Source of the DNA: a virus
Taxonomy: Duplodnaviria; Caudoviricetes
Length of the DNA: 58,493 bases
Reading direction: 5' to 3' (one strand)
Virus record (IMG/VR): IMGVR_UViG_3300044695_005296
Span: 1-58,493 of that record
How positions within the stretch are numbered: position 1 is the first letter of the stretch; each line of letters begins with the position of its first letter. The position numbers and the translations under genes were made by a program. The notes below the pieces were generated by a model. The model was given only the letters and a program-made list of their open reading frames with translations, did not search any database and was not told where the DNA came from. This document shows positions 3,873-50,192 of this stretch, in pieces.

Positions 3873-4068
3873 CACCATTGGGTACGCATACACCCAGCCG
3901 CAGGACCTTTGGGTTTGTTCGGTTTGTGGGGATGAGCGGCAAAGCGAAGCAGTCCAATCTACCCGCAGCAACACGCTGCATCAAGATTTTAAGCACGCCT
4001 CCTGTGTGGTGTGCCGGAGTACGCGGCTGTTTCGCGTAAAAAGGAGGGAAGATGAACGAGAAGTCTAG
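3856..4068 (+). CDS. Small Zn-ribbon protein
   Basis: CSVC...CVVC; fills the operon gap; start uncertain. Confidence 0.55.
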   Translation: MSKKSDTIGYAYTQPQDLWVCSVCGDERQSEAVQSTRSNTLHQDFKHASCVVCRSTRLFRVKRREDEREV

Positions 4069-25369: not shown

Positions 25370-28300
25370 CTTGGCCTCATGAAGCCTGCCGCACGGAGGG
25401 TGCGTACCTGTGCCGAACTTACCTTCTCGGCAAGTTTATCAATATCTGCGGCATCCGACACAACAGGGTTGTTAATGGTGACGGACGCATTGATTGTCGC
25501 GCCTCCGCCAGCCATTCGCAAGTCCCCTGGAGCCTGCAACGCTTGCAGGCCAGTATTTGGCAACATGTAGCCACTGCTGTCAGGGATCATAAGCTCTGGC
25601 CCACGCTCACCAACAAGGTACGGTGTGTACTGCTTGATTGGCCCACCGAAGGCTCGCGCAACTGGCTCCGTTGACTTTCCGCCAACCATCGTTGAGCCAG
25701 TGCCGCCCTTAACAGGATTCCAGTTTTTTGGCATGACCTTTGACCATTCCCTAAAACCAGTAAACCCTGGCAGCATTTCGGTATAGTTTTTAACCCACCT
25801 AGGTTCCATTCCCATAAGCGAGAACAGCTCTTCGCTTGACCTAAATTTGCCAATATTCTCTGGTCTCCACATAAATGGAGGAATAATCATTCTTTGGGCA
25901 GCGAGCATCTTGTCTTGTGCTTGCTCTTTTTCGGCAGCGGTTAAAAGCTCTGTGTCAAAAAACGCTCGGCCAAGATTAAACGGTATTCCATAATCTTGCT
26001 TATTTTGCTTAACCAGGTCTTCGTAAGAAGTTCCGCCTGGATCACCCTTACCAAAAATGCTTTCCCATCCCATTTGGCCAAGATAACCAATGAATGGCGC
26101 AACTTTTCCGACAACGTCGGCAATGCCACCAGGCAAATCCCAAAGCATGCCGCCCGTCTTGTTTCCAACGTGATACGCGCCCGTTGTTAGCGCAAGAGAA
26201 GCAAGCAGGGAACCACCCAGCGTTTCTGGGGCAACTGCTGCCAGTTTTACGGCCGTAATCGTTTCTGCCAACGCGCCAAATCCAACTCTAGCAATTGAAC
26301 GACCGAGAGGCTCTTTCAGCTTGTCAAGTTCTTCTTTAGTTGCTTCAGACAAAACAATTGGCGGACCAGGGTTGAAATCGCCAGAGGCAAGGCCCTCTGC
26401 AATTGTGTAATCCTTCAGGGTGTCATACTTTTTATTTGGATCAAAGCTATCAAAAATTCCCGTAATTGACTCAGTAAAATTAAGCGGGCCACTGCCCAAC
26501 TGTAGATTTTCGTTTAACGTGGCACGCGCTAGTTCAGATTCAAGAGTCCCGTTTCTTTCAAACTCTCTTTTCTTATTTACCCAATAAGCTTCACTCATTT
26601 CCTCAATTCGAATTTGCTCTAGGCGCTTTTCCCACCAATTTCCGTCTTTCTCTTGCGCCTCGTAAAGGTCTGTTGCCCACCCAAAAGAGCTAAGTCCAAT
26701 AGAACCCTTCTTCCAGAATGGGTACATTTTTCGTTCTGCTTTTCGCAGCAGGTTAGAGTGCTTAAAGAAATCTTCAAGTATGCCACGGCCTTTTCCGCCC
26801 ACGCCCTCTGGGTAGAATTTGGCGCCCCTGCTCTGCGGAGAAACGTTTGGATCTCCAACAGTTTTTACAATTCCGAGTTCGTTAGGTTGCAAATGCGGCA
26901 GCAACCTGCCTGGCTGCAGCAGCAAATCGGCAAAAGGAGTTCCCTTAATGAAAGGAAGCTTTGCAAGTTGGGCAAACCAGCCATACTTGTATTTCCAACC
27001 AGTTCCGCCCCTTACAACCGCACCAACTTCACCACCGTGATTTGGTCCTGGCTTTAGCTGCATTCTTACTGGTCCGCCAGCAGCTTGTGTTACCTCGTCG
27101 CCAAATTGTCCGCCTGGAACCTCGTCAAGAAGCCTGGTCTCTCCTCCTTCACCTGGCCCAAATGGCGCAAAGATTTGCGTTCTTGCACCAGGAATTGGAC
27201 GAGATTTTCCTGTTTTTGGATCAACCGTATACGGGAATTCAACGTTTGCCGCAATATCCCCAAGGCTGTCAAGCAGCATTGGGTAAAGCTTCCAGTTGAA
27301 AGGAATTGTGGCGGTATCTGGGTCAATTATCGGCGGCTCTGGTGGATCAATTACTGTTGTAACCTTTTCACAATAGTAGCCGCCCTCGCTCCAAACCTTA
27401 ATATACCCAGGTGGGCAATCCCACGTTGGCGGCTCTGGCGGAATTGGTGGCTCTGGGGTAATTGGATCGTCCATTGGGATAGGCCCACGGCCCCTACCAA
27501 CGTACCCGCCCGCTGCCCGACCCATGACTGGGCTCCAGCCCATTCGTCCGCCACCGCGAATCTTGCTTGCTACATAGCGAGCGTAATTCTTTGGATAGCG
27601 ACGCATCATTTCGTTCTTCTGCGCTTTTGTGTTATTTGGGTTAGCCATAAACTCGTTGAAAGAGTTTTGCTGGAAGCCCATAGGGTCGCCAACAAAGCCC
27701 AAGCTTCTCTGGAAGCTATCTGTTGGGCTCCAGAACGGATCGTCTTTCCCTACGGGTCCGACATATCCGCCGCCAGCTCGACCAGTTACACCAACCAGAC
27801 CGCCGTAGTATCGTCCCTGCTTGCCCGCCTTAAGCGCGCCAGAAGAGGACTGCATGCTACTTGGAAGCTGGTGGTTTGGCGTGACGTAGCCGCCACCATT
27901 TTGGAACATGGTGAGCATTTCTGGCCCACGCTCCCCAACAATGTATTGACCAGCGCCAACAGGTCCGCCGGCCGCCATTGGCTGCCAGTTCCATGCAGTG
28001 CCGCTCCATACCCAGTCACCGTTTGTTGCATACGGTGGCTTATATGTTGGCTTAGGCGGCTTTGTGACCGTTCCTGAGCCAGTAGATGGGGCAAAGCCTT
28101 CCCCGCCCGTTCTGGCAATCGTTGGAAGATCGCCAAACTTCTTATAAATCGCGTCAAATTGTGCGTACAAACCATCAAATATTTCGTTGAACTGTGAGCG
28201 CTGGATGAATTCATCATAGCCATCGAAAGGCATATTTTGTAGTTTTACCGCAAAATCTCCAAGGTTATCAATAACGCCCGCTGCTTCTTTCGCTGCTTGG

Positions 28301-31300
28301 GTGCCTTTGTTTTCTATCGCAAATCCTGTAAGTCCCGCTTGCGCCCTGGTGACCACACCCTTTAGGCGATCCCGCTCTGCCAGGACTTTCTTTTTGCTAA
28401 TCTTGTCAAGACCTTTTTCTACGCGCTCTTGCTGGGCAACTATTGCATCAACGTTTGCCTCTGCGGCAGCAGCTGCCATTGCGGCCCTAACGACATCTGC
28501 CATGGTGGTGGAAATAATGTCGCCAAGTTCCTGGAATCGCGTAGCAAATGCGGTGCCCATAATGTCTGCCAAGGCCTCGCCCTGGAATTGACCCGTTGCA
28601 AGAATAGATTCAATTGGCAGTCCGGCGTCGCCAAACATTGCGTAGAATTCTTCCTGGGCATCGGCCGCCTTGATCTTTCCTTCTTGAATATCCTTAAGGA
28701 GCTTCTGCGCTCGTTCCTGAAGCCTCCTAGCCCGCTCTTGCTGGTCCGCCCCAAGGGTTTGTTCTTTTTCTTGATAATATGTTGAGACCTGCTGATATTG
28801 AACGCTGTTTTTTGCTTGCTCAATTGACGTCTCCATAGACGACAGCTGATAATCCGCCTCTTCTTCTTGTAGCTTTTTGGCGGCCTCTCGTGCGGCAATA
28901 GCGGCCTCGATTGGATCCTTTTGTGCGTCAAACAGGCCAAGGGTTGCGCGCGCTGCGTTTTCCTGAGCGTCGTTTAATGCATTAAGCTTTTCCTGCTCAG
29001 CACGCTGCTCTTTCATTGCAGTGTACTGTTCTTCCAAAACACCAAGCCGCATAATTTCGCCGTTGTGCAACGCGTCAACGTTGTAGATGGCGTCTTCTTG
29101 CTCGGCCTTCAACTGCGCGGTTTCTTCCGCGAATGTTTTATTAAGAAGCTCCATTGCCCTTGAAAGGAATTGATCAAATGCAGTTGCAAATGGATCAAAG
29201 ATCTTGGCAAGCGCCTTGGAAAGCTTGTCTAGGTTCTTTTGCGCGTCGTCTAGGCTTTCATTGAGAAGCTTAAGCGAATCACTTGTGGAGAAGAGCGCCT
29301 CGTCTGGCGTGCCCTCTTTATTAAATTCTCCCGTGAACGCCATTCCCTTTCCGCCCAAGCCGAATTTACTAAAAATCATTTCGTCTATTTGCGCTTGGCC
29401 AAAGTTCTCTGCAAGATATGCAGCCGGGTCAATTATCGCTGCTGGGAGTGTCGAGGTTGGGAGGCGGTAACCGCCAGCGTAATACATACCCTTTTCGCCA
29501 GTGACCGCGCCACTTGACATCCCCGCCCCCGCCGCGAGCTCTGTAATGAGAGAAGTCCCGTCGTCCCTAGACATGATGCCCATAGATACCAAGGCATAAA
29601 GCTTGTCGGCCATTTCACTGCCGATTCTTGCTGCAGCATTAGTGTTTGTAGCCTGATTGAATGCGACCATTTGCGAATCAAACGGGCGCATTGCCTCTCT
29701 ACTCAGGGCGCCAGACTGATATGCCGCAACTTCTTTTTCTACAGTTGCCTTTAAGTAGCCTGCTGTTTTTCCAGCTTTTGTCGGGGTGTAAATTGAAACG
29801 CCGGTTTCCCCTTCAAGGTTGTTTGCGGTGTACATTCCAGAAGCAACCAGCTCGTCCATTTCGGACGCTGATTTCTTTATGGTTTCTATCTGATCGTCGA
29901 TTACCTGCTTAGTGCTATAAGAAGCCTGTCCGGTAAGCGGGTCTTTCTTAATTTCCTTAACTGCAAGCCCACTGTCCTTCCAGGTCTTGGCAACATCTTG
30001 CATCTGCTTGCGGTCATTAGCACGACTTTCTTCGTAAGACATAACGGCAGCTTTGTTAGCAGAATTTACTGCTTCATTTGCAAGTACAAGACCTCCCAAT
30101 AGTGTGCCGAGGCCCATCATGCCGCCGCCCTTGCCAAAGAAGCCGCCTACTTTTCCAAGAATCCCCGAAACTCCGCCCATTGGCGCTATAGCTAGAGCAA
30201 CCTGGGAAGCAGTCTGCAAAACTGCCGCAAAGCCAATAAGTCCTTGTGACGCTTGCGCAAGTCCATCAATCTGCATACCAAACGCAGACGTAATTGCCTG
30301 CACGGCCATTCCGAGGCCACCAAGGGTCATGGCAGCCTTGGATGCCATGCCGGTCATTTCGGCAAAGGCCTCGGTACCGCCACCCATTAGTTGAATGTCG
30401 TCAATCGTTGAAGCGGCCGCCACAACAGCAGCTTCTATTTTTTCTTTTGCGGTTACCGGAAGATTTCGGTCTCTTTCCGGTCGACGATTTATAATGTCTT
30501 GCAAAGCGCGAGCTTTATTAATCTCGTAGGCAAGCCCCGTTGGGGAACCAGCCAATCCCTGTAGCCCCTCGACGCCTTGGGCAGCTACCCGTTGCGCCGG
30601 AGTCATGTATTCTTCGTCAATTGGGAGAGGGTTTAATCCCTGCTCTTTCCTTGCGTTGTTCTCCCTATGTTGTTCAGCCCTTCGCTCATCGCGCATTTTT
30701 CTGTATTCGTCAATGTTTAAACCAGATTCAAGAGCCAAAAGCTTTTCATCAGATTCGTATTTATCTAAAAGAATTGACCTGCCGCTCTTTGTAATCTGAG
30801 GATCTGCAATAGAGCCAGAGAGAAGGCCTGCCTTCAGCAATTGAACTGTTTTTGCGTGAGTCCTTTGGGCCAAGGCGAGCTCTTCCGCCGAGGCCGCCTC
30901 GCCAAGGGCTCGATATCTGGTGACTGGCTTCTGAACGGCCATGCCATCTGGGCGAACCTCGCCAGTGATCTCATATCCGGTGTACGGGATTGGCGCTCCA
31001 GCGTATATCCCTGTTGCGTGTTCCTTAAAGTAGCTTGGCGCGGCCCCCTGGCCCGCAAAATCTCCAGGCTTAAAGCCCGTAGTTTGACTAATTCCAATCC
31101 CGCGAGGCTCCATCGCCGATACCGTTTTGGGCTCCATCATTGGCTCGCCTGTTTCCGGATTGGACAAAGGCATTCCAGTTGCTGGGTCTATAACGGGAAC
31201 CATTACTTCTTTTGTTGGCCCAAGAATGCCGTATCTAGAGGCTCCGGTTCGACCGTATGAGCTCATTTCCACAGCAGCAACCTGCATATTTTGCTGCAAG

Positions 31301-34300
31301 CCTGCAAGCAAACCCGATACGCCGTTAGTGAGAATGGCCATACCTTCGATTGCTGCCTTCTTTACAACAAACGCGCCCATCAAGGATCCGATAAGCGGAG
31401 CAAGTTTTTCCAGAACTCCGGCCATTGCACCAAGCCCTGCGGCTATGCTTGAAATTAGCGGAAGGGCTGCCTTTAGGGCAATTACCAATCCCCCGCCAAT
31501 AATCTGTGCCGCAGCCGCGCCAAGCGCTTTAATTGCAGGGATTAGTGCCTCGGCAATATCTGGCCCAATTTCCATAAGCGGCGCAGCCGCCTGATCAACA
31601 GTGTCTGCAAAGCCAAGGAAGTTTGTTTCGTATGCGTTACGCAGAGCGCCAAGAGCCGCAATTGCAAGAGTGATTGTTGCGACTAGCGGGTTTGTGCTTA
31701 CCGCAGTCATCAGTGCCTTGATTGCCAAGGAGGCAACGACCGCTGCTCGGACTAGGTTATTAGAGAGCAAGTCCCCGATAGTTGCAATGCCGCTGCGCAA
31801 GAAATCTATTGCACTTCCCGTTTCTGATCCGCCGAATACCTTGGCAAACAAGTTACCAAAATACAGCATTGAATTAGCAATTACCTTCATTGATGCAGGA
31901 ATTGCCTCTCTTAGCGTATTCGCAAATCCTTGCAGGCTTTGTCCAATCTTTACAAATATCCCGTATGTTCCCTTTTGCTGCAACAATTCTGAGAAGCGCA
32001 CAAGCAAGTCACGGATGGCGTTATAAAGAGGGCCAGTCATAACCGCAACAAGCGATTGCGACATATCCGAAATGGTGCTCATGGCACCGGTCATCGTCTT
32101 AGAGAGGCGCTCCATTCCGCCGCCGTACTTCTCGCCAAGCCCCTCAATAATTGCCCCTGAGGCAGCCTTTCCTGAAATTCTTCCTGCGGTTGTTAGCCGA
32201 CGGATTGCTTCAATAGGGTTTGCATACAGGTCATTAAGAATTCTTCTTTGCTCATTAGTCATCTTGTCGCCAGTTGCTTCAATTTCTTGAATCAAAGCCT
32301 CTGACAAGATTTCGTAACCAGCAATACCGGCGTTAGCTAGCTGCATCATGTCGTTTTGATACACGCGACCAGCTGATCGCATCTGGCCCAAGGCGTACGT
32401 AATGCGCATGATGCGCTCGTCGCCACCACCAAGAGCCGCAACGGCGTCACCGATGTCCTTGATATAGCCGACTAGTTGCCCGGATTCATCTCTTTGGATA
32501 ACGTCACCAATGTTGAATCCGAACGCTTGCATTCGGACAGCCGCTTCCTGCAGCTGCGTGAAGTAGAACGGCGTAATGTTGGCGAACTCTTTAAGTCGGT
32601 CGATCATGCCGGTAGCACGACCCTCAGCAACTCCCATAGAGTCGCCTGCGTTATAGAACAACGTCGAGAACCCAACCTTTGCGTCTTCAAGCGCCTGGTT
32701 GAACTGGATAAAGCCTGAAGAAAGGTGGCTAATAGATCGGTAAATAGCGTTTGCTGCGTTCTGCGTAAGAACGAATGCAACAGCCAGTTTTGCCGTATCC
32801 TTAAAGGTGCTGATTAATCCGCTGCCGCTGCTTGTTGCAGCGTCTAGCGCCTGGCTAAAGTCAAGCGATCCCTCAGATGCTCGCATAACGGCATCGTCAA
32901 AGTCTTGCATGATCCCGACCATTGGCCGAGTCGCCATAAAGGCATTTTTCATTCCAGAGGCCATGTCGCCAATTTTGCTAAGCCCAGGGAACGTATTCAT
33001 TCCTTGCATGACGTTGTCGAGATCTGAGAAGCCTTGCCCGCCAAATGCAAATGGCATGCTTGTTGCGCCAGCGTCCCCGCCAATCAGCTCCCTGTAATTG
33101 CTATCAAATATTGCCTTGCTGATAGATTCGGCAAGATCGGTTGATAGTGGGTCAAAGTATGGCTGCACTGCTGTTGATCCAGAAACAACTGGGCCAACAG
33201 GTCCGCCACGTCTCCCTCGCTTTGTTGCAGGAACCCTAGTTCCTGGCTGCGCGCCAAGGAGAGGATGGTCTGGTCTGTACTCTCGTACAAATGGGAGAAG
33301 CTCTGGGAACTGCTCTGCAAGTCCGGCAATTGCCGACGAGGCCAAGCTTGTTCTTGCCAGTTCTGTTCCGGCAAGCGGTCTGTCTGGAAGACCGGCCATC
33401 CTGCGTACTTGTCCCCTGTAAATCTGATTTTCTTTTCCGCCGCCAACAACTCCGGTGAGAAGAAGCTCAGAAATTGTAGAAAGAAGGTTTTGGCCCGCTG
33501 CGGAAACTGCAGCAACCCTGCCTGCTGGCTCTGGAACAAAACCAGGACCAGTGCTTGGTGGTGCCGCAGGTCCAGCCGGCTTCTTCTTTCCCCCCTTACG
33601 CTTAGCGCCACCTGCTGCCTCTACGAGTGTGGCAAGCTGCTCTGGATCATCTGCGTCGCTACCTACAATTCCGTGTGGAACCGTCGGACTTGCAGCAACG
33701 CCCAGCTTATCCGTAAGCATTGCCGTAAGCGCTGGTATGTTTTTTGCTCTGCCTAAAGTGTCAAGAACAACAGCGGCGTCAAGGATTCTTTCTGGCCTAA
33801 TTGACTCAAAGACCTTGCTTCGCTCGCTGGCTGGAGTTGCCTTAAGCGCACCTTCAAGTGCTCTGGCAAACATTGCGCCAAGGTCCTTAGGGTTGACGCC
33901 GCCCGCAGCGGCAGCGCCAGTAAGCTGGCCAGACATATTCCTTCTCAGTCGAGCAGCAAATTCAGCAACTGGCTTAAGCGCCGTTCCAAAATGTTGCGAA
34001 AGATCAAAGGCTCTAAGCAAACCGCCCTGATAGGGATTTGCGCCACCGGCAATTCCAGGAAGGATTGAGCCAATGTCCGTAATTCCGCCTGGGCTGCCGG
34101 CTTTTCTTGCTCCGGCATTCATCTGCCGAGTAGAAAGAGCCAAGCTGGCTTCTGTCTCTCCGGGTTGCAATATCTGCGTTGATTGCGCAAGCAGTTCTGC
34201 GTACTGGCTTAGGCCCGCACCACGGGATGCTTCCAGCATCCTTACCTGTGGGCCAAAGTGCCCAGGAACGTTGATATGCATACCTTGTGCATTTGGGTCA

Positions 34301-37300
34301 ATGTCAGCTGCCGTTTTTTGGTCAACATATGCTGGCTCATACCCAGCTTTTTCCTTAGGGCTTAGGGCCTTGTACTTAGAGGCCGCAATTGCCCCCTTTG
34401 GCAAATCAAAATAGCTAAAGCCTTCAAGATTGTTAGCATCTCCAAGTGGTATGGTCTTTCCGCCGACCTTGCTTCCTTTTGGAACAAACATGTCTTCGCC
34501 AGAAATTCCAGAGAATACTCGGTACTGCGAAGGCACCGGGACGCCAATCTTCTTATATACTTCCCGCTCAATGCGGGCGCGCTCTGCTGGATCGGTTACG
34601 CCTTTTACGCGATCCGCAGTTTCCAGTCTTGCATTGTCAACTTTTGCGTGAGTAAACTCGTGCGCAAGCGTAGTCAGCGCGCCGCCAAGCGTAACGTTGA
34701 CTGGATCTTGCCTCCTGCCGCCCAGGTCCATATCGACAGTTCCCGTGCCGCCCTTGCTTACTGGCGAGTAAGACGCCCAAGCTCCCTGGGTCGCAATAGG
34801 ATTTCCAAATTGAAGATCTATACCGCCAGGAACCCCTGGAGGTGCAAACTTTTGAGCAAAGTCTGCAAGGATATTTGCCAAACCACCAACTGCTTTTGGA
34901 TCATTGCCAAACTGAGTAAGGTGCGAAGCAAGAGTTGCCGATCCGGCAAGTCTTAGGCCAGGTGGGATTGGAGCCCCACCAAGTCGCGTAAGATTTGATG
35001 GTCCGTCTCCGTATTGAACGGTGCTTATTGAAGGAAGCCTTACCGCCCCTGGTCCGCTTGGCTTCTTCTTTTGCAACGCTGGGTTTGCGGCAATCTGCGC
35101 AATGTCTGGCGCATAGGTTGAAGGAACCTGACCAAGCATGCTAAACAGCACCTTGCGAAGAGGGATACCCTTCAGGTCGCCGCTCTTAAATGCTGCGGTG
35201 CCCGTGTCTTCGATATCCTTAAGGATGCCGCTGAACATGCCCATGATGGACTTGCGTGCCTTTGGTGCAATGCCGCGCAGGGCTTTCTGCATTGATCCGC
35301 CAGCAAACTCTCCCTGGCCCGTAGCGGCTTCAAGGATGGTCTTTTGGAACGACTCAATACTCTGCCTGAACAGGCTTGGGTTCATCTTTTGGCCAGCAAG
35401 AGATACCTTCAGGTTCTTGATGGCGGTAAGGGTTACCTGCTCAAAGGCGGTCTGCAGGGCTGTGTACGGGGTGCCAGTAGCAGCTCCACCGCTGCGCTTG
35501 CTGTATTCGGCAAAGGGGTTTGTCAGGCCGTTCATACTGCCACCCCCTGATCTTCGTGATAGTTCCCGACCGTCCGGCCGGGCTGCGCCCCGCGATTCAG
35601 CCATGCGACTCCTAAACGCTTCACGTGCGCGTCTGAAGATAGCATCGACTGTTGCGAGTGCTTCCTGCTCACTATATCCCCCTGCTCGCAATGCTTCAAG
35701 CAATTGCGGCTCTATAACTTTTCGCCGCGTCATGATGCCCGCAAGGGTAGCGGCTTCTTCCCTTGCGAGTTTTGTTTGAGTGTCCCGGAACTTTCCGGGG
35801 ATTCCAATTGGCACATCGCTGGCTGGGCGATATGGCTGTTGTCCAATCCTGCCGGTGCCCGGTGGGCTCAGGGTCAGGTCGTGATCAATGGCGGTCACGC
35901 GATAATTTCCAGGAGAGCCTACGCCGCCCTTCGGGTCGGCTAAATTGAGGAGGTAGTTAAGTCCGTGTCGGTCAAATGTCTGCCCAAGATGATCAAGGAT
36001 CTGCATGCGCCTTCCGCCCCTGCTTGCAAGCCACGGCTTATCGCGAAGGGCTGGATCATCTGAGCGCGGGCCTAGGGGCTGGGAGAAGCGACCGATAATC
36101 TCGTCGTCTTCCCATACATCAACCATCTTTGACGGAGGTGCGTTGCGCTTGTTGACAAAGTCAATTGCGGTTTCCCCTGGGGCCATTGGCTGAATTGCCA
36201 TTCTCCTGCCACCAATGCTGCGCTCCAGAATTGTTGGGGTGTCCACCCCGAGAAGCCCAGCAAGGATCTCCATTGCCTTGTTTGGGAATTTACCCTCCAT
36301 CGGCTGCGCAAGGACATTTCTTACTTCTCCAGTAAGAGTTTTCAAAGCAAGGATTTGTTTGCCAGCCCCGCCAGACCAGTGGCCGATGCCGTGCGAGCCC
36401 ATGCCGGTAATGTCTCCGCCCAGCAAGTCCTGCAGCGTCATCCCATAGGTTTGTCCACCAGTAATCTGCTGCATGATGTTTGGCCTGCCCCTACCAAAGA
36501 GACCGCCAAGCATTCCACCAATGCCGCCAGAGCGCTTGCTGTATTCAGCCCATTGGTTGTTTCTTGCCAAAATGCGCGCAACTCGATAGCCAAGTTTATT
36601 TTTTGCGTCTACATCGGGATGCCCGCCAAGGGCAGCGTCTGGCGCCCCCCATGCGCGACTGCTCCATTTTGCAAACATTTGAGCCATCCACTCGGTCCCA
36701 ACATGCATTTGCCCTCTAATAGAGCCATATCCGCCAATTTTCCAAAGCTCTTGCATTGCTTCATTAATATTTTTATATTGCTTTGGAAGGACGCTGGCAA
36801 GCGGACCCTGCTTCCCCATCAGCATCATTTCGCCAATTTTTCGCATTTGGAGTTGCTCAGTAACATCCTCTACCATAAATCCTGTTTTGTTACTTCCATA
36901 CATCGTTTTTTGTTTCTTACTGCCAGGATGGAAAAAGCCACTGTAAGCGCCGCCCTGCCTGTTGCTTTTGCCGTCTATTTCTCCAGGCAAATAAAAATCT
37001 TCTGGCTTTAATCTTCCGCCAGTAGTCTCTTCAACATTTGCAAGCGCGGCCATCTGCGCCATGCCCTTTTTGTAGTCATAATGGTAGCCCCTGGCGCCGC
37101 GACCCATGCCATCTCTTCTGTCTCCGTATACAAACTCATCATATGGCTGATACCCGTAAAAACTAATACCTTTTTGTTTCATTGCTTCTTGATATTTGTC
37201 AACAGCCATTACGTGACCGAGCTCATGGGCAAAGATGCCGTGTATGCTCTGCGCCCTGCCAGCAAGGCCATCCTTGCTCGCAAAACGAGGATTCTTTGAC

Positions 37301-40300
37301 TTGTAGTAATCAAAGTATGCATTCTTGTCGTGTGCCGAATCTGGCGTAAGCAAATAATCCATCAGGTTTATCGGTCCAGAACCGACTGATGCCGTGCCAG
37401 TAGCGCCCCCATGCAATTTTTCGTATGACATCCTGATTCCGGTACTTCTTGGACCAGCAAGCTCTTGCATTTGTTCTGGATACTTCTTGTGGAAGCTTTC
37501 TACAGCTGCAATAATTTCTTGCAGTCGCCCTCGGTGAGCATCAGCCGGAACATTGTCAATTCGCAAGCCGCTAGGTGTCACTACTTGGTAATACGGAATG
37601 CCTCGGTGTCCGCTTGGCCTTGGGATTGGCTGTCCTTTACGGGGTCCAGCTACATACGTTTCGTTCTGGGGGTAAAATCTTGTTCCGCGCGTAAATGAAC
37701 CAAGCAAATTTTCTTCGCTTAATCTAAAAGCGGTTTGCCCTAGGTAATTTGGGTCTCCCGGACCCATCCTTCTAACAAGTTTTTCTTGCATTGGGTACGA
37801 TGTCTTGCCAGACCTTCGCGCAAACTCCATTGGGCTGTAGGCAATGCCCTGCTCTGCAAGGCGGGCTTCTACTCTCTTGATCTCTGCACGGATTTTTCCG
37901 TACATGTCAACAACCTTGTCTCCACCCATATGCATAAAGCTGCTTCTAGCGCCTAGGTCGGTAAATTCAAACCCGAGCGCCTCGTACAGGCCCATACCTC
38001 TTTCACTGGCTTTTAAGCTCAGTCCACCAGGGCTGCCTGGTCGCATGTTGAGGCGGGGGAGATCTTCTGGGGACACACCGTATTTAGCCTCTAGGGCGCC
38101 GGGGTATCTTCTTCGAGCCTCCATAGTTGCCCGAGCGTGCCGACGCAACTCATACGCCATAAGGCTTGTGCCGACACCTGGCACCCCAAGGCCGGACAGG
38201 CCAGCAAGTTTGCCTTGCTCGCCAGTGCCTGGCATTCTATGGGTCATTGCGCCAACAACAAGATTTCTTAGGCCAGCAGCGTCTTCCATGCCTGGGACAT
38301 AAAACCTATTTGGCGCGGTAGCAATAAACCCGCCCGTAAGCCCAATGCGGCGATTGCCGCTTTGGCCGGCCCTCCTATCTCTTCGCGCACCAGGCGTACC
38401 CGCGCTCACCTCTCTAAACGCATCAAAACCACTCATTTCGTCAAGGGCAGAACCAACCATATCCGCACGCGCCCTTCGATCAGTGTCCGTTGCATCCATC
38501 AAAGCTGAGCTTGTGAGCACTGAGCCCGGAGCCAATGTGGCAATTGATCCCATTCCTGATCGCTGGCGTCTAAACAGTTGGTACGCCCGAGCTGCAGCCA
38601 TTTGATCTGCTCGTGAAGTAATTCTTCTAACGTTTCCATCGTTCTGAACTGAAACGCCCATAGCCTGAAGCTGAGCATTAATCAACCGCTCAGGGTCTGG
38701 GGCAATTTCCCGAACCCGCATACCGGCGTTGTGGGATGCCACAAGAGCTTCCGCAAAAATCTGCTCGGGGCTTCTGCCAGCAAGGTTTTGAGGAATTATA
38801 GGCCTAGATCCCCTGCTTGCTCGACCAGGAATGAACTCTTTTCCTGTAACCAAAGACGTCCTAGTTTCATCTTCAAAAGTCACTGGTCGAGCTTTTTGGT
38901 CCCTCTGTTTTCTTTGCAGCATTTCGCCAAGCAGCCGAATCGGTCTTGGGAGCTCAGCAAAATCCCCACTAGGAAGATCTTGTGGAAGCATGACCCCGCG
39001 TCCAGTTGCCCTGGTTCTTGCAGCAAGTTTTCTCTGGGCCCCAGAACGGCGCGACATTTGCAGCATTTGATAATACTGTCCGGCATCGGTCGATCCCGAA
39101 GATGCCTCTGCCTCTCTTGTAATTGCAGCAGCCTCTAGCCGTGTTCGAAGGGTCTCCATGTACTTTTTAGTGTCTCTATATGAATATCCAGCAGACAAGA
39201 AAGATTCTTCAACAATCTTCATTGACCTCTTGCCGCCAAGAATTCCCCTTAGAGTTTTTGCTTCTCGCGCAGATGCGTCTTGTTCTTGCTTGTTTAATTT
39301 TACTCTTGAAAGTGTTCCGCCACCTTTATTCCACGGCAGCAGTGCGCTCAATGACTGAGGAATCTCTCGCGGCTTATAGCGCGCAGAGAATGAGGAGAAT
39401 TGCGGCGTATTGTTTAACTGCCTATCAAGGTCTGAGATGGGCCTATCAAGGCCGCGCATGCTAAATAAATGCTCATTATCAATGCCGACGATTCTTTTTC
39501 TTCCGCTTCGACCCTTGCCGACCATGATGTTGCTGCCGTGTCGATCTGACTGGCCAAGGATCTGATCAAGGAGCATGATGCGTCGCATGTCTCTTGTTGA
39601 GCCAAGGTGCCTAGTTGCTTGCGTTTCAATTTCATTGTTAAATACAGGATTTCCAGGAAGCGACTTGCCCATTGTTTCAAAATTTTCAAGCCAAGGAATC
39701 ATCCATGCATTGCGGCTAAGTGGCCGGTGTTGACGAACTTCTGTGTGTTGGAATTTCCCAGAAGCGATTCTGCGGGTTGCGCCAATGTTTGTTCTAGCCG
39801 AAGAGCCAACTTGCGGTAGTCTTCCGCCAGTTGCCAGTTGCTGCTCTAATGGAGTTAGCCTTCTCCTAACGACAGCGGGCGTTGGAGCCCCAAGCATCCC
39901 GCCAAGAACCTCATATACTTTTTCTGCCATTGGGCTATATGGAGAAAGTTTCTTTCTTCTAGTTTTTCTGTCCCCCTGCCCAAGGTTTCTCCCGACCTCT
40001 CGGCCATCTCGTTGTCCTTTGAGCCCCCTGTCGTTCTCGGGGATCATGGCGATAGCTGTGCCTCGCACTCGATCTCGCCCCGTGCCCATGGAAACGGTGG
40101 TGGATAGTCTTTTTGTGTTTAGGCGTTGGGCGCCAATCTCTTGGCCGAACGACATGTCGCCTCTGCGGATTGCCTCCAGGATTCGACGATCTGGCACAAA
40201 TCCAAAGGCTGTCTCGGCAACGGAGCGGGAGCCAGAGCGTCGTGACATTTCGCGCGGTCCGCCCTTGCCCTCCTTGCCGCCGTAGCCACGACCGTCAACA

Positions 40301-41646
40301 ACTGCACCCTTTTTGCGCAACGTAGAAATAAAGTTTTGTAGCGCTCGGCGGTCTGATGCAGAAGATGGATAAAACACTGGGGCGCCAGATGGGGAAACAA
40401 GTTTTTTATGATTTTTCCCTTTTTCAATTCTCCAGCCTTGCCCGAGAACCTGACCAACTATTCGGTCAATATCCTTGTTGCCGCCACTACCGCCCCTGCC
40501 GGATTTCTTGGAAAACTCCATGAGGCCGCGACCCGGAACGTGGACCGACATTGGCTTTCCCGGTGAAGTTCTTGGGAAGAACGTGCTGCTGCGACGTCTG
40601 GCTCTTCTTGCTGTCTCAATCATTCTTTGCAAATAAGCAGGCATGCGTCGCACGTCTTCTCTCATGCGACCTTGTGGGGCTCGAAGAGCTGATTGAAGAA
40701 GGCTTAGATTTTCTTGCTCTATTGCCGCCTCAAAAAGAGCAAGATCTCCTTGCTGCACATCGTAGCGACCCGAGCGCCTCTTTGGCTTTGGCGGACCAAA
40801 GCGATTGCCACGCCAGGCAAAATTTCTAAGGTCTAACGGCTCAGATGGATATGAGACGTCGCCAGTTTCTGATGCAACAAGCCTTGAAATGAAACGACCA
40901 AGATCACGCGAAGAAAGACGGGAAAGAAGCTGTGATCTTGCCTCTCTTCTAATAAAGTCTGGGTCTGTGTCGTAAGATGGGCCGGTGTCGCCCGTGCGGC
41001 CCTCAATGGCAATGCCTGCCTTGCGCATACCAGAGCGCTTAGACAGCTCCAGGCCAAGCGCGGCCCTTGATATGCCCGCTATGCTGGGTATAGAGCGGGC
41101 AGCCGCCCCGGAATCGTCTAGTGAGGAGCGGGCGCCGCGCGTTCCTGCGGCTCCCGTACCTGCCCCACCTCGACCGAAGGAACCGCTACCAGAGCGACCA
41201 GCATTTCTAAATGCCATCGCTCCGGTGCGGTTTTGCGACATGGCAGCACGCGCCATCGCGTCTGCGGTTCGCATTGCCTGGCGCTCTTGTGCCGCCAAGG
41301 CATTGGTAACTCGCTGGATGCCAGAAACGGCGTTATTGGGCTGTGCCCCAATATTAAATACTCGGCTTAGGCTTGCAGCAGAGGCGTTTGCCTGCGTCTG
41401 CAGCTTTCTAAGTGCGGGTATCGCGTCCGCGTCAACAGCGTTTCTGAATTGCTTAAGGGAGAGAGAGGCTTGGCGCAAACCTCGGAAAGACGAGCCGACC
41501 TTGCTTCCCGCTACCTCAAACTGATTAAGACCCTGTGTAAGCAGTCGGATATCTGCAAGGATGGCCTGTGTTCCAGCCTTGAATTGGCTGGTATCAAGAC
41601 CAATGGATATCTGTCCAGTACTGGACTGATCTGCCGAATCTGCCAC
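25366..41646 (-). CDS. Giant tape measure protein with multiple enzymatic cargo domains
   Basis: Follows the chaperone pair; FANITPF...GDAVAALGG...ALGQM..AGRV...MMQLANAGI tape-measure domain at about 32000-32750; VGERGPE C-terminal motifs. Confidence 0.9.
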   Translation of the reverse strand: MADSADQSSTGQISIGLDTSQFKAGTQAILADIRLLTQGLNQFEVAGSKVGSSFRGLRQASLSLKQFRNAVDADAIPALRKLQTQANASAASLSRVFNIGAQPNNAVSGIQRVTNALAAQERQAMRTADAMARAAMSQNRTGAMAFRNAGRSGSGSFGRGGAGTGAAGTRGARSSLDDSGAAARSIPSIAGISRAALGLELSKRSGMRKAGIAIEGRTGDTGPSYDTDPDFIRREARSQLLSRLSSRDLGRFISRLVASETGDVSYPSEPLDLRNFAWRGNRFGPPKPKRRSGRYDVQQGDLALFEAAIEQENLSLLQSALRAPQGRMREDVRRMPAYLQRMIETARRARRRSSTFFPRTSPGKPMSVHVPGRGLMEFSKKSGRGGSGGNKDIDRIVGQVLGQGWRIEKGKNHKKLVSPSGAPVFYPSSASDRRALQNFISTLRKKGAVVDGRGYGGKEGKGGPREMSRRSGSRSVAETAFGFVPDRRILEAIRRGDMSFGQEIGAQRLNTKRLSTTVSMGTGRDRVRGTAIAMIPENDRGLKGQRDGREVGRNLGQGDRKTRRKKLSPYSPMAEKVYEVLGGMLGAPTPAVVRRRLTPLEQQLATGGRLPQVGSSARTNIGATRRIASGKFQHTEVRQHRPLSRNAWMIPWLENFETMGKSLPGNPVFNNEIETQATRHLGSTRDMRRIMLLDQILGQSDRHGSNIMVGKGRSGRKRIVGIDNEHLFSMRGLDRPISDLDRQLNNTPQFSSFSARYKPREIPQSLSALLPWNKGGGTLSRVKLNKQEQDASAREAKTLRGILGGKRSMKIVEESFLSAGYSYRDTKKYMETLRTRLEAAAITREAEASSGSTDAGQYYQMLQMSRRSGAQRKLAARTRATGRGVMLPQDLPSGDFAELPRPIRLLGEMLQRKQRDQKARPVTFEDETRTSLVTGKEFIPGRASRGSRPIIPQNLAGRSPEQIFAEALVASHNAGMRVREIAPDPERLINAQLQAMGVSVQNDGNVRRITSRADQMAAARAYQLFRRQRSGMGSIATLAPGSVLTSSALMDATDTDRRARADMVGSALDEMSGFDAFREVSAGTPGARRDRRAGQSGNRRIGLTGGFIATAPNRFYVPGMEDAAGLRNLVVGAMTHRMPGTGEQGKLAGLSGLGVPGVGTSLMAYELRRHARATMEARRRYPGALEAKYGVSPEDLPRLNMRPGSPGGLSLKASERGMGLYEALGFEFTDLGARSSFMHMGGDKVVDMYGKIRAEIKRVEARLAEQGIAYSPMEFARRSGKTSYPMQEKLVRRMGPGDPNYLGQTAFRLSEENLLGSFTRGTRFYPQNETYVAGPRKGQPIPRPSGHRGIPYYQVVTPSGLRIDNVPADAHRGRLQEIIAAVESFHKKYPEQMQELAGPRSTGIRMSYEKLHGGATGTASVGSGPINLMDYLLTPDSAHDKNAYFDYYKSKNPRFASKDGLAGRAQSIHGIFAHELGHVMAVDKYQEAMKQKGISFYGYQPYDEFVYGDRRDGMGRGARGYHYDYKKGMAQMAALANVEETTGGRLKPEDFYLPGEIDGKSNRQGGAYSGFFHPGSKKQKTMYGSNKTGFMVEDVTEQLQMRKIGEMMLMGKQGPLASVLPKQYKNINEAMQELWKIGGYGSIRGQMHVGTEWMAQMFAKWSSRAWGAPDAALGGHPDVDAKNKLGYRVARILARNNQWAEYSKRSGGIGGMLGGLFGRGRPNIMQQITGGQTYGMTLQDLLGGDITGMGSHGIGHWSGGAGKQILALKTLTGEVRNVLAQPMEGKFPNKAMEILAGLLGVDTPTILERSIGGRRMAIQPMAPGETAIDFVNKRNAPPSKMVDVWEDDEIIGRFSQPLGPRSDDPALRDKPWLASRGGRRMQILDHLGQTFDRHGLNYLLNLADPKGGVGSPGNYRVTAIDHDLTLSPPGTGRIGQQPYRPASDVPIGIPGKFRDTQTKLAREEAATLAGIMTRRKVIEPQLLEALRAGGYSEQEALATVDAIFRRAREAFRSRMAESRGAARPDGRELSRRSGGGSMNGLTNPFAEYSKRSGGAATGTPYTALQTAFEQVTLTAIKNLKVSLAGQKMNPSLFRQSIESFQKTILEAATGQGEFAGGSMQKALRGIAPKARKSIMGMFSGILKDIEDTGTAAFKSGDLKGIPLRKVLFSMLGQVPSTYAPDIAQIAANPALQKKKPSGPGAVRLPSISTVQYGDGPSNLTRLGGAPIPPGLRLAGSATLASHLTQFGNDPKAVGGLANILADFAQKFAPPGVPGGIDLQFGNPIATQGAWASYSPVSKGGTGTVDMDLGGRRQDPVNVTLGGALTTLAHEFTHAKVDNARLETADRVKGVTDPAERARIEREVYKKIGVPVPSQYRVFSGISGEDMFVPKGSKVGGKTIPLGDANNLEGFSYFDLPKGAIAASKYKALSPKEKAGYEPAYVDQKTAADIDPNAQGMHINVPGHFGPQVRMLEASRGAGLSQYAELLAQSTQILQPGETEASLALSTRQMNAGARKAGSPGGITDIGSILPGIAGGANPYQGGLLRAFDLSQHFGTALKPVAEFAARLRRNMSGQLTGAAAAGGVNPKDLGAMFARALEGALKATPASERSKVFESIRPERILDAAVVLDTLGRAKNIPALTAMLTDKLGVAASPTVPHGIVGSDADDPEQLATLVEAAGGAKRKGGKKKPAGPAAPPSTGPGFVPEPAGRVAAVSAAGQNLLSTISELLLTGVVGGGKENQIYRGQVRRMAGLPDRPLAGTELARTSLASSAIAGLAEQFPELLPFVREYRPDHPLLGAQPGTRVPATKRGRRGGPVGPVVSGSTAVQPYFDPLSTDLAESISKAIFDSNYRELIGGDAGATSMPFAFGGQGFSDLDNVMQGMNTFPGLSKIGDMASGMKNAFMATRPMVGIMQDFDDAVMRASEGSLDFSQALDAATSSGSGLISTFKDTAKLAVAFVLTQNAANAIYRSISHLSSGFIQFNQALEDAKVGFSTLFYNAGDSMGVAEGRATGMIDRLKEFANITPFYFTQLQEAAVRMQAFGFNIGDVIQRDESGQLVGYIKDIGDAVAALGGGDERIMRITYALGQMRSAGRVYQNDMMQLANAGIAGYEILSEALIQEIEATGDKMTNEQRRILNDLYANPIEAIRRLTTAGRISGKAASGAIIEGLGEKYGGGMERLSKTMTGAMSTISDMSQSLVAVMTGPLYNAIRDLLVRFSELLQQKGTYGIFVKIGQSLQGFANTLREAIPASMKVIANSMLYFGNLFAKVFGGSETGSAIDFLRSGIATIGDLLSNNLVRAAVVASLAIKALMTAVSTNPLVATITLAIAALGALRNAYETNFLGFADTVDQAAAPLMEIGPDIAEALIPAIKALGAAAAQIIGGGLVIALKAALPLISSIAAGLGAMAGVLEKLAPLIGSLMGAFVVKKAAIEGMAILTNGVSGLLAGLQQNMQVAAVEMSSYGRTGASRYGILGPTKEVMVPVIDPATGMPLSNPETGEPMMEPKTVSAMEPRGIGISQTTGFKPGDFAGQGAAPSYFKEHATGIYAGAPIPYTGYEITGEVRPDGMAVQKPVTRYRALGEAASAEELALAQRTHAKTVQLLKAGLLSGSIADPQITKSGRSILLDKYESDEKLLALESGLNIDEYRKMRDERRAEQHRENNARKEQGLNPLPIDEEYMTPAQRVAAQGVEGLQGLAGSPTGLAYEINKARALQDIINRRPERDRNLPVTAKEKIEAAVVAAASTIDDIQLMGGGTEAFAEMTGMASKAAMTLGGLGMAVQAITSAFGMQIDGLAQASQGLIGFAAVLQTASQVALAIAPMGGVSGILGKVGGFFGKGGGMMGLGTLLGGLVLANEAVNSANKAAVMSYEESRANDRKQMQDVAKTWKDSGLAVKEIKKDPLTGQASYSTKQVIDDQIETIKKSASEMDELVASGMYTANNLEGETGVSIYTPTKAGKTAGYLKATVEKEVAAYQSGALSREAMRPFDSQMVAFNQATNTNAAARIGSEMADKLYALVSMGIMSRDDGTSLITELAAGAGMSSGAVTGEKGMYYAGGYRLPTSTLPAAIIDPAAYLAENFGQAQIDEMIFSKFGLGGKGMAFTGEFNKEGTPDEALFSTSDSLKLLNESLDDAQKNLDKLSKALAKIFDPFATAFDQFLSRAMELLNKTFAEETAQLKAEQEDAIYNVDALHNGEIMRLGVLEEQYTAMKEQRAEQEKLNALNDAQENAARATLGLFDAQKDPIEAAIAAREAAKKLQEEEADYQLSSMETSIEQAKNSVQYQQVSTYYQEKEQTLGADQQERARRLQERAQKLLKDIQEGKIKAADAQEEFYAMFGDAGLPIESILATGQFQGEALADIMGTAFATRFQELGDIISTTMADVVRAAMAAAAAEANVDAIVAQQERVEKGLDKISKKKVLAERDRLKGVVTRAQAGLTGFAIENKGTQAAKEAAGVIDNLGDFAVKLQNMPFDGYDEFIQRSQFNEIFDGLYAQFDAIYKKFGDLPTIARTGGEGFAPSTGSGTVTKPPKPTYKPPYATNGDWVWSGTAWNWQPMAAGGPVGAGQYIVGERGPEMLTMFQNGGGYVTPNHQLPSSMQSSSGALKAGKQGRYYGGLVGVTGRAGGGYVGPVGKDDPFWSPTDSFQRSLGFVGDPMGFQQNSFNEFMANPNNTKAQKNEMMRRYPKNYARYVASKIRGGGRMGWSPVMGRAAGGYVGRGRGPIPMDDPITPEPPIPPEPPTWDCPPGYIKVWSEGGYYCEKVTTVIDPPEPPIIDPDTATIPFNWKLYPMLLDSLGDIAANVEFPYTVDPKTGKSRPIPGARTQIFAPFGPGEGGETRLLDEVPGGQFGDEVTQAAGGPVRMQLKPGPNHGGEVGAVVRGGTGWKYKYGWFAQLAKLPFIKGTPFADLLLQPGRLLPHLQPNELGIVKTVGDPNVSPQSRGAKFYPEGVGGKGRGILEDFFKHSNLLRKAERKMYPFWKKGSIGLSSFGWATDLYEAQEKDGNWWEKRLEQIRIEEMSEAYWVNKKREFERNGTLESELARATLNENLQLGSGPLNFTESITGIFDSFDPNKKYDTLKDYTIAEGLASGDFNPGPPIVLSEATKEELDKLKEPLGRSIARVGFGALAETITAVKLAAVAPETLGGSLLASLALTTGAYHVGNKTGGMLWDLPGGIADVVGKVAPFIGYLGQMGWESIFGKGDPGGTSYEDLVKQNKQDYGIPFNLGRAFFDTELLTAAEKEQAQDKMLAAQRMIIPPFMWRPENIGKFRSSEELFSLMGMEPRWVKNYTEMLPGFTGFREWSKVMPKNWNPVKGGTGSTMVGGKSTEPVARAFGGPIKQYTPYLVGERGPELMIPDSSGYMLPNTGLQALQAPGDLRMAGGGATINASVTINNPVVSDAADIDKLAEKVSSAQVRTLRAAGFMRPS

Positions 41647-50051: not shown

Positions 50052-50192
50052 GATTCCCCCTCTAAGGCCGACACAACTTGGCCAGCCGGTAGATAATACA
50101 CATGCTTTATCCTGTAACACAACGCGCTACAAATCTATACCTTTAGTATCTGCACGCAGTTGTGTGTCTAGTGTCATACCATGCTGGAAACA

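Follow-up and report, generated by a model that had tools for sequence, protein, structure and literature searches.

How does a phage tail protein that carries a train of unrelated domains mark the place where one domain ends and the next begins, and is that mark a place where the chain is cut? The question is raised by a stretch of 58,493 bases of tailed-phage DNA (IMG/VR record IMGVR_UViG_3300044695_005296), referred to here as the window. It encodes a giant tape measure protein (TMP) in which the motif [EQ][FLMY][SA][KR][KR]SG occurs eight times between the N-terminal modules. An earlier note on this DNA had taken the motif to be a protease site releasing individual effectors. The repeated boundary motif in a giant TMP is confirmed as an observation; polyprotein processing at the motif is a proposal made from the sequence.

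The tape measure protein and its modules

Every copy of the motif is carried by a single open reading frame with a GTG start, located at 25366..41646 on the minus strand and encoding 5426 aa; all TMP features described below are given by their coordinates on that strand. The frame is identified as a TMP both by a profile match and by its gene order. Pfam TMP_3 (PF20155) matches aa 3005-3201 with 41.3 bits, above the curated cut-off of 41, and PHROG tape-measure families match the protein at E values of 6e-11 to 4e-9. The order of genes runs from putative tube (42429-43181) and chaperone (41917-42216) through the TMP to distal tail and fibre. Upstream lie genes for a gp17-like tail-completion protein, the putative tube protein of 250 aa and a phrog_2115 tail protein, and downstream lie genes for proteins of 2645 aa and 1137 aa, the latter with Peptidase_S74.

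Seven modules precede the ruler. Module 1 (aa 1-199; 41050..41646) is a head piece at the N-terminus that is conserved in this group of TMPs; it shares 65% identity with the N-terminus of a sister lineage (L020-L023) and matches lineage L038 more weakly, and similar N-termini are found in many lineages. Module 2 (aa 207-376; 40519..41028) belongs to no known family and is mosaic, with 91% identity to its counterpart in the relative L007 and 68% identity to that in L004. Module 3 (aa 384-465; 40252..40497) is a HicA-like small alpha/beta domain that falls in phrog_2089, and its top Foldseek match is E. coli HicA, with a non-significant E value of 0.24. Module 4 (aa 473-862; 39061..40230) is PI3/PI4-kinase-like. 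In it, PF00454 is found at aa 684-731, scoring 29 bits within the first 2100 aa and 25.2 bits when the module is scanned alone, against a cut-off of 27.1. Module 5 (aa 870-1273; 37828..39039) has no known family, a GNAT-like look being at most an impression that no search bore out, and it is the homologue of a module of ~310 aa that is repeated in the sister lineage. Module 6 (aa 1281-1700; 36547..37806) contains the sequence HELGH (aa 1474-1478) and exists as three divergent variants within the family. Module 7 (aa 1708-2027; 35566..36525) is a second PI3/PI4-kinase-like module and a paralogue of module 4 (BLASTP E 1e-6, 24% identity over 287 columns). The region past the last motif copy (aa 2054-2950; 32797..35487) contains a further HExxH sequence, HEFTH (aa 2329-2333).

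The modules with HELGH and HEFTH had been labelled zincin 1 and zincin 2, respectively. The HExxH sequences are indeed present, but the label goes further than the family matches, of which there is only a weak one of module 6 to Peptidase_M48 (E 0.027, below cut-off); module 6 has no match among PDB sequences. No family was found for modules 1, 2, 5, 6 and 7, or for aa 2054-2900, in Pfam, NCBIfam, PDB sequence and profile searches and one search of the ESM Atlas.

The cargo modules are all strongly basic, with pI values of 9.4-11.7, while the ruler is acidic (pI 4.9-5.6). As in a polyprotein, several independent domains lie in one frame, and independent contigs preserve this frame as a single ORF. 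The gene call of P0003 begins directly after copy 1; the frame is continuous at this point in two other contigs.

A short motif repeated along the cargo

The eight matches lie in a single frame of the ORF, and the positions reported for them previously (aa 200, 377, 466, 863, 1274, 1701, 2028 and 2047) were reproduced exactly, both as coordinates and as residue numbers. Copy 1 is ELSKRSG (aa 200-206; 41029..41049). Copies 2 (EFSKKSG; aa 377-383; 40498..40518) and 3 (EMSRRSG; aa 466-472; 40231..40251) flank the HicA-like core, 7 aa N-terminal and 10 aa C-terminal of it, respectively. Copy 4 (QMSRRSG; aa 863-869; 39040..39060) toggles between E and Q among orthologues. Copies 5 (EFARRSG; aa 1274-1280; 37807..37827) and 6 (EYSKRSG; aa 1701-1707; 36526..36546), the latter of which reads EYNRRSG in L007, form the left and right breakpoints of a swapped cassette that is described below. 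Copy 7 (ELSRRSG; aa 2028-2034; 35545..35565) is followed after 12 aa by copy 8 (EYSKRSG; aa 2047-2053; 35488..35508). A partial ninth copy, KPKRRSG (aa 287-293; 40768..40788), is found within module 2; it has no E-hydrophobic-S part, reads KPKRSSG in the relative L097, and is probably not a true copy of the motif.

The motif does not occur at background frequency. The composition of the TMP predicts 0.002 matches against the 8 observed, and in 5000 shuffles of its sequence the mean count was 0.0024 and the maximum 1. A six-frame scan of the window returns the 8 TMP matches and zero others, and when the TMP is scanned for repeated 7-mers with BLOSUM scores in an unsupervised manner, the linker motif emerges as the top family. 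The earlier statement that the motif is absent from the ruler region also holds: the core [KR][KR]SG is observed 9 times in aa 1-2053, where 0.44 are expected, and 0 times in aa 2054-5426, where 0.23 are expected.

Conservation is at the level of the protein, as had been argued from the use of different serine codons. TCT, TCC, TCA, TCG and AGC all occur across the copies, and pairwise identity over the eight is 0.58, 0.72 and 0.30 at the first, second and third codon positions. The 7 constrained positions lie between flanks that are variable over 6 residues on each side; in sequence terms, such sharp-edged conservation is characteristic of short linear recognition sites. The flanks of all 8 copies show no significant linker-like bias in composition (G/S/P, P = 0.09; hydrophobicity, P = 0.31), and they are clearly Gly-rich at only 4/8 copies.

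Position of the motif at module boundaries

Stand-alone homologues of module 3, of which there are ~45 with lengths of 65-100 aa, cover aa ~389-452 only, between copies 2 and 3. In an AF2 model the HicA-like core (aa 388-452) has a pLDDT of 87-96 and copies 2 and 3 lie in low-confidence coil with a pLDDT of 52-67, where the flanks fall outside the alignment, itself a factor that lowers pLDDT. A model of aa 1260-2069, built from a 6-sequence alignment, has a mean pLDDT of 34 and is unusable both for domain borders and for judging whether a motif docks in an HExxH cleft, so structural context is limited to these two copies. The paralogous kinase-like modules 4 and 7 can be compared by alignment, which stops 9-14 aa short of the following motif in both. 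Copies of the motif are found at module edges and not inside folded domains. It had been claimed that recognisable domains occur singly, each flanked by two copies, and this is true of those for which it is testable, namely the HicA-like module, both PI3/PI4-kinase-like modules and the HELGH module. The protein thus has one conserved short site at its domain boundaries, as a polyprotein does.

The boundaries are also visible in the exchange of modules. The relatives L029 and L007 share 95-97% identity in modules 4, 5 and 7, and 35% in module 6; similarity drops at copy 5 and returns directly past copy 6. Judged from these alignments, the module between copies 5 and 6 is swapped among relatives as a cassette, with its breakpoints at the motifs.

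The motif in related phages

In the close family, 8/8 copies are kept in 5 contigs and 5/5 covered copies in a further 2 contigs, and the variants seen (ELSKKSG, EFSRRSG, EYNRRSG and EFARKSG) are all conservative. In G001, a complete relative of 90.8 kb, the 7-residue matches to a looser pattern are the TMP's 8 copies only. The same genome has one further match to the core, KLSKRSG, which is without E/Q at position 1 and lies in a 94-aa open frame. This frame overlaps a longer gene of the opposite strand.

The sister lineage is 63% identical to the window lineage in the TMP core. An IMG/VR scan recovered from it a variant motif, [QR][FY]A[KR][KR]G, which there occupies the homologous position, the C-terminal end, in 4 repeated modules, and copy 5 (EFARRSG) is the positional homologue of its QFAKKG and RFAKRG. 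Since seven unrelated modules each precede a copy in the window lineage, the motif has not merely been inherited with one duplicated domain.

Beyond these lineages, a widened pattern has zero matches in 69/76 related TMP loci; 4 of these are the sister lineage with its variant form, and 65 are without any such motif. The cargo regions of 75 related TMPs range from ~80 to ~2900 aa, and most are motif-free. Several of the motif-free TMPs have long N-terminal cargo, HicA-like modules included, that is joined via poly-G, PT or TAAT runs. Carriage of cargo does not, therefore, require a specific site. The first 2100 aa of the TMP have no match among GenBank phages. Searches by word index in 5.8 billion proteins, and by phmmer in 1.84 billion representatives, returned only the close family, HicA-like singletons and one multi-kinase-like protein, with no distant motif-bearing relative. 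A search for prophage relatives that might point to the host gave three distant matches only, in unrelated MAGs.

The earlier note had named four findings that would speak against its proposal. Three were looked for, these being background frequency, a position inside folded domains and absence from homologues, and none was encountered; in the close family every covered copy is kept.

Cleavage, docking or modification

The motif may be a shared endopeptidase recognition site, most likely marking where the chain is cut, and we give this reading about an even chance of being correct. Much of the earlier argument for a protease site stands, in that the motif exceeds chance, is under selection as protein sequence, stays within the cargo, sits at module edges and is kept in homologues; the part that named the prohead protease as a candidate is not supported. 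A siphovirus TMP would, on the cleavage reading, have a cargo train inserted between its N-terminal head piece and its TMP_3 core, with the motif in each linker. Cuts at the eight sites would give seven pieces and a 12-residue spacer. The pieces set free would be the head piece, the HicA-like and HExxH modules, the two PI3/PI4-kinase-like modules and two modules of no known family, and the HEFTH-bearing remainder (aa 2054-5426) would become the mature ruler. As to the scissile bond, we infer that it either follows the hydrophobic residue of position 2 or coincides with or follows the two basic residues; a cut after position 2 is as compatible as the cut between KR and SG that had been assumed earlier. 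A late cut, after tail assembly or following ejection into the host, is favoured, because the head piece is conserved in cargo-free relatives and is presumably needed on the ruler during assembly. A cut at copy 1 severs this conserved piece from the ruler, which is counted against cleavage.

A bolder form of the proposal, which can be held only tentatively, is that of a MARTX-like effector train, in which seven basic modules, two of them kinase-like and one HicA-like, would be threaded unfolded through the tail tube and into the host ahead of the DNA and then cut apart at the eight copies. The cutter would be either an HExxH peptidase of the train itself or a protease co-opted from the host. 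The cleavage code would have arisen at one module type, which the sister lineage shares, and spread from there to every boundary.

The signature of a short linear motif would equally fit a peptide that is bound and never cut. It has been considered, and seems unlikely, that each module carries a non-covalent docking or loading peptide for one partner, such as the chaperone of tail assembly, a host factor or the tail tube with its electronegative lumen, which would keep the very basic cargo unfolded or orderly. The contrast between basic cargo and acidic ruler does suggest adaptation to a charged environment, one tag per module suits loading or chaperoning, and without cutting the conserved head piece remains on the ruler. 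Comparable cargo, including a HicA-like module, is nevertheless carried without a tag in related lineages, and the tandem copies 7 and 8, only 12 aa apart, would be without obvious use. Insertion or exchange of modules could also leave the motif behind as a by-product, or it might be a folding-insulating linker, recognised in either case by nothing. Such a passive junction is quite improbable, even though the cassette breakpoints coincide with motifs and copy 5 is co-inherited with its module in two lineages. The copies are no more alike in DNA than their amino acids require, and from the low identity at third positions it follows that the motif is not a recombination site. Moreover, poly-G or PT runs insulate in related lineages, and seven specified residues, with acidic, large hydrophobic and paired basic ones among them, exceed what a passive spacer needs.

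There remains the serine at position 6, which is invariant in 8/8 copies and in all family variants and is preceded by two basic residues. It might be modified, for example phosphorylated by the PI3/PI4-kinase-like modules, two of which lie within the same chain, or by a host kinase, and so regulate the cargo. We regard this as very improbable. No link between PI3/PI4-kinase-like domains and the motif was found, and a regulatory site is not expected at all boundaries yet never inside modules. In the sister lineage the serine is not conserved, its aligned counterpart being Gly (FAKKGK, FAKRGS), and BLASTP at E <= 1e-4 finds neither of the kinase-like modules there.

Candidate enzymes

Among the matches listed (25 of 30 Pfam families for the second half of G001), the protease set comprises S78, S8 and S74 enzymes and the two HExxH modules, and none of them tracks the motif. 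The HK97 prohead protease cuts a Lys-Ser bond, and a short conserved motif is the target of the prohead proteases in phiKZ/SPN3US-like and T4-like phages. The window encodes a prohead protease (Peptidase_S78) with a TUDOR-like domain and an acidic scaffold (48468..50120, minus strand), which the earlier note had listed as a candidate. An S78 enzyme of the HK97 type would be expected to find the same site in its established substrates. No [KR][KR][SAG][SAG] or [KR]SG site is present in the major capsid protein, the protease-scaffold protein, the adaptor or the portal, the first two of which are its expected substrates, and the candidacy is not upheld.

A fourth phage-encoded protease, absent from the earlier list, is a proteinase-K-type subtilase (Peptidase_S8; 4384..5316, plus strand) of 310 aa with a signal-like N-terminus and no propeptide. 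It was considered seriously because position 2 of the motif (F/L/M/Y) fits the P1 preference of classic subtilisins. The best PDB matches are 2b6n and 8c4z, and no kexin or furin is among the 60 matches listed; a dibasic site of the kexin/furin type would call for a kexin-type subtilase in the compartment of the substrate, which is not what is found here. Comparison with GenBank phages gives distant matches only (<=39% identity). The N-terminus is signal-peptide-like in 7/7 homologues, and the subtilase is found in three motif-free lineages; from its sequence it looks exported and does not track the motif, and it was rated down to a weak candidate.

In searches of Pfam, NCBIfam and PDB sequences and profiles, no peptidase family reaches threshold for the HExxH modules. 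Zincin 2 was taken up as a possible motif-specific partner when BLASTP suggested that it occurs in two motif lineages only, and was dropped when a scan for HExxH found modules of similar context in many motif-free related TMPs. Prp (PF04327) is absent from all three family records (G000, G001 and G002), and the motif resembles an L27-type Prp site only in part, in a different register. No CPD-like cysteine protease was detected here. We infer an order of candidates in which an embedded HExxH module or a host protease comes ahead of the prohead protease, and the exported subtilase comes last.

Significance and comparison with known systems

Tailed phages are thought to make discrete proteins, processing being known for head proteins and as single cuts in TMPs. 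If the cleavage reading is true, an eight-fold site that splits a tail protein into host-directed proteins would amount to a polyprotein strategy, novel for this class of virus. It would also open the manner and timing of cargo release from the tail to direct study, with the related phage group, in which most TMPs are motif-free, as natural controls. Were the motif a docking or modification site instead, it would still be a rare sequence-defined short linear motif that organises the cargo of a phage tail protein.

The following comparisons draw on excerpts of the sources cited. In MARTX toxins an embedded protease cuts, once delivery has taken place, small-Leu-small sites in unstructured inter-effector segments (PMC2900308). 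The TMP is similar in being a giant single polypeptide with a train of unrelated modules and short inter-module sites, although cleavage is here only proposed; the type of site would also be similar if the cut follows position 2 (F/L/M/Y, then S/A). Unlike in MARTX, the carrier is a TMP and not an RTX translocator, the motif is longer and has a dibasic pair, and no sequence relationship was found. Another likeness is to polyvalent proteins, which phages and conjugative elements encode as multidomain conflict-type proteins that are delivered with DNA, and in phages their processing by embedded zincin-like metallopeptidases has been proposed (PMC5512222, Iyer et al. 2017). That account has 0 occurrences of 'tape measure', and in its excerpted part no repeated defined linker motif is described. 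The HExxH modules of the TMP differ from those of polyvalent proteins in matching no known peptidase family.

Proteolysis of phage structural proteins takes two further forms. The ejection and inner-body proteins of phiKZ/SPN3US-like and T4-like phages, which travel in the virion and are destined for the host, are trimmed by a phage protease (PMC10052503, PMC5694885). These substrates are separate head proteins processed in the prohead, whereas here it is a tail protein that bears the motif and the head proteins are without it. Cutting by a host protease has a precedent in staphylococcal phage 80alpha, whose structural proteins are cut by Prp (PMC5744158). The Prp motif, MLxx(D/N)LQ(F/L)F'A(S/H)KK, is found in ribosomal protein L27 and in the 80alpha capsid and scaffold proteins (PMC9405229). 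Its order is Q, hydrophobic residue, cut, small residue and dibasic pair, and QFAKKG of the sister lineage and EFARRSG and EFSKKSG of the window resemble it in style. The TMP motif has, however, one hydrophobic and one small residue fewer, and it lies in internal linkers, while Prp sites are N-terminal leaders.

TMPs with embedded or appended domains, together with the TMP-related effectors of contractile injection systems (Sle1), have been described as modular carriers to a target cell (PMC13277306). In those systems, as that source presents them in part, there is one functional domain and no repeated boundary motif; in the protein described here there are seven modules and eight copies.

The tape measure gene and its surroundings

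The whole finding lies in one open reading frame of 5426 aa (25366-41646, minus strand), in a record with an estimated completeness of 64%. Its product matches Pfam TMP_3 at aa 3005-3201, along with several PHROG tape-measure families, and the gene occupies the position expected for a siphovirus tape measure protein (TMP). On its 5' side are genes for portal, S78 protease-scaffold, SU10-type capsid, adaptor, head-completion, tail-completion, putative tube and chaperone proteins; on its 3' side are those for tail proteins of 2645 and 1137 aa. One continuous TMP frame is also present in independent contigs.

Several neighbouring genes have features of their own. The prohead protease (48468-50120, minus strand) is fused to a Hva1_TUDOR-like domain and to a scaffold-like tail that is long, rich in Ala, Glu and Pro, and very acidic. 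The portal gene (50858-52987, plus strand) is on the strand opposite to the other head genes and has a C-terminal extension matching phrog_2859, and an exonuclease gene (phrog_284; 43720-45003, plus strand) lies on the opposite strand amid the head-tail block.

A motif repeated eight times

Eight copies of [EQ][FLMY][SA][KR][KR]SG had been reported in the TMP, and a regular-expression search returns exactly these, at aa 200, 377, 466, 863, 1274, 1701, 2028 and 2047. Composition predicts 0.002 matches, the maximum in 5000 shuffles was one, and the six-frame translation of the window holds no further match. An unsupervised search for repeated 7-mers ranked the motif first. With a looser pattern, the 7-residue matches in G001, a complete relative of 90.8 kb, are the eight TMP copies only; one other core match there, KLSKRSG, falls in a 94-aa open frame overlapping a longer gene on the opposite strand. 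The motif is indeed missing from the ruler, the later part of the TMP: its core, [KR][KR]SG, occurs 0 times against 0.23 expected after aa 2053, and nine times against 0.44 expected before. KPKRRSG at aa 287, which lacks the first three positions and reads KPKRSSG in one relative, was left uncounted as a ninth copy.

Pairwise identity among the copies is 0.58, 0.72 and 0.30 at the three codon positions, and the six flanking residues on each side are variable. Selection therefore acts on the seven amino acids and not on the DNA, in agreement with the earlier note, which had placed conservation at the protein level. The gene call of one homologue, P0003, begins at a Met directly after copy 1 (window aa 207); in two other contigs the frame is continuous.

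Motif copies as module boundaries

That the copies mark module boundaries is borne out along four lines: stand-alone homologues, paralogues, mosaicism and sister-lineage alignment. When aa 190-1290 were compared by phmmer with 1.84 billion representatives, 48 proteins were returned, about 45 of which stand alone (65-100 aa, some longer) and match nothing outside aa ~389-452, a stretch flanked by copies 2 and 3. From that alignment AF2 predicts an alpha-beta-beta-beta-alpha core at aa 388-452 (pLDDT 87-96), with copies 2 and 3 in coil (pLDDT 52-67); these flanks lie outside the alignment, which alone is enough to lower pLDDT. The top Foldseek match of the core is E. coli HicA (E 0.24, not significant). 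Modules 4 and 7, both PI3/PI4-kinase-like, are paralogous (BLASTP E 1e-6), and in each the alignment stops 9-14 aa ahead of the next motif. In an unrelated protein of 1687 aa, P0017, PI3/PI4-kinase-like units follow one another in tandem, about five in all; their catalytic loop is of the DRHxxN style, as in modules 4 and 7, and no motif separates them.

The family is a mosaic, module by module. Between relatives L029 and L007, identity is 95-97% in modules 4, 5 and 7 but 35% in module 6, while module 2 of the window TMP is 91% identical to that of L007 and 68% to that of L004. In a stepwise comparison along the chain, identity drops at copy 5 and returns directly after copy 6. A sister lineage contains repeated modules, four of which align with module 5, the alignment terminating in the motif. 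Against the boundary reading, linker-like flank composition over all eight copies was not significant (G/S/P, P = 0.09), and only four of the eight have clearly Gly-rich flanks. No usable AF2 model was obtained for the longer stretch aa 1260-2069.

Distribution among relatives

Relatives of the cargo region are scarce. In 5.8 billion proteins, two word-indexed searches turned up nothing beyond P0002-P0004 (67-84% identity), three fragments and P0005; this last protein has in common with the window TMP the ruler together with the initial ~190 aa. The motif is kept in homologues: seven IMG/VR contigs of 82-84% identity retain every covered copy (8/8 in five, 5/5 in two), with conservative variants only. 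A scan with P0005 as query gave 76 TMP loci, 75 of which have the TMP_3 core in common. As the core begins anywhere from ~aa 80 to ~aa 2900, the cargo is a hypervariable insert between it and a short conserved N-terminal head piece. These 76 IMG/VR loci (L020-L093) constitute a large siphovirus TMP group with inserts of ~80 to 2900 aa.

A widened motif pattern matches only the seven loci of the window family (0/69 others). In the sister lineage L020-L023, with a core 63% identical, [QR][FY]A[KR][KR]G[KS]L occurs four times together with one degenerate copy, each at the C-terminus of one of the repeated modules, which are ~310 aa long and homologous to module 5 of the window TMP. Four to five of these paralogous modules, of no known family, stand in tandem at aa 281-1575 of L020, and likewise in L021-L023. 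Module joints in other lineages are poly-G, PT or TAAT runs, and HicA-like modules there lack the motif. The TMPs of L025-L029, which are close relatives, bear near the C-terminus (aa ~4270-4995) a third HExxH, HETGH, that the window TMP lacks, and thus the tip-proximal end is also exchanged among relatives.

Possible function of the motif

The most likely function, at about even odds, is that of a shared endopeptidase site. This reading is favoured because the seven-residue signature is sharp, because it stands at every boundary, after unrelated modules, because it is absent elsewhere among the phage-encoded proteins, and because MARTX toxins and polyvalent proteins offer precedents. The motif might instead be a non-covalent docking or loading peptide. 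Charge serves both readings equally: 35488-41646 (minus strand) encodes a basic stretch, with a pI of 9.4-11.7 in every cargo module, whereas the ruler part of 25366-35487 (minus strand) is acidic (pI 4.9-5.6 in segments spanning aa 2951-4500), a sharp split consistent with a chain that is transported inside an electronegative tube or passes through one. If the endopeptidase reading is right, cutting would come after tail assembly or ejection, since the head piece is conserved even without cargo. The scissile bond might lie after position 2, giving a hydrophobic P1 and small P1', or at or after the dibasic pair, as the earlier note had assumed.

No candidate enzyme is tied to the motif. The prohead protease (S78), one of those proposed, loses ground, as its expected substrates hold no motif-like site. 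For the internal zincins the HExxH signatures at aa 1474 and 2329 are present, but a peptidase family match is not; zincin-2-context modules occur in many motif-free lineages. A Pfam protease census of G001 (95/104 ORFs scanned, the other nine covered through window orthologues) gave two families, S78 and Peptidase_S8, among those listed (25 of 30 in the second listing). The S8 member, a subtilase of proteinase K type (4384-5316, plus strand), has no I9 propeptide; in the alignment its Asp, His, Ser and Asn motifs are retained. It is present in 7/13 records examined (4/8 among those at least 90% complete), and three S8-bearing lineages lack the motif. All seven homologues have a hydrophobic, signal-like N-terminal segment directly ahead of the mature domain; the enzyme is probably exported, and it is a weak candidate here. 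Lysis, receptor trimming and exclusion are possible roles. Its C-terminal tail is Trp-rich (...EWWADWWD), and the stop codon of an upstream ORF (4052-4387), encoding an acidic protein of 111 aa (pI 4.1) of no family, overlaps its start. Prp is absent from the three family records. A host protease is a live option.

Comparison with known systems

Literature listed on TMPs in connection with polyproteins, cleavage and prohead proteases, N-terminal extensions, effectors or toxin domains yielded no description of a repeated boundary motif in a TMP, and the polyvalent-protein paper (PMC5512222) never mentions tape measure proteins. A cleavage function for such a motif is testable, but unproven. The published L27 site of Prp, MLxx(D/N)LQ(F/L)F'A(S/H)KK (PMC9405229), resembles QFAKKG and EFARRSG in style, although the register differs; MARTX and Prp sites have a hydrophobic P1 and a small P1', as the motif would if cut after position 2. 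The nearest concepts are MARTX toxins (PMC2900308), polyvalent proteins (PMC5512222), giant-phage ejection proteins that a protease trims, and those effectors of contractile injection systems that are related to TMPs (PMC13277306).
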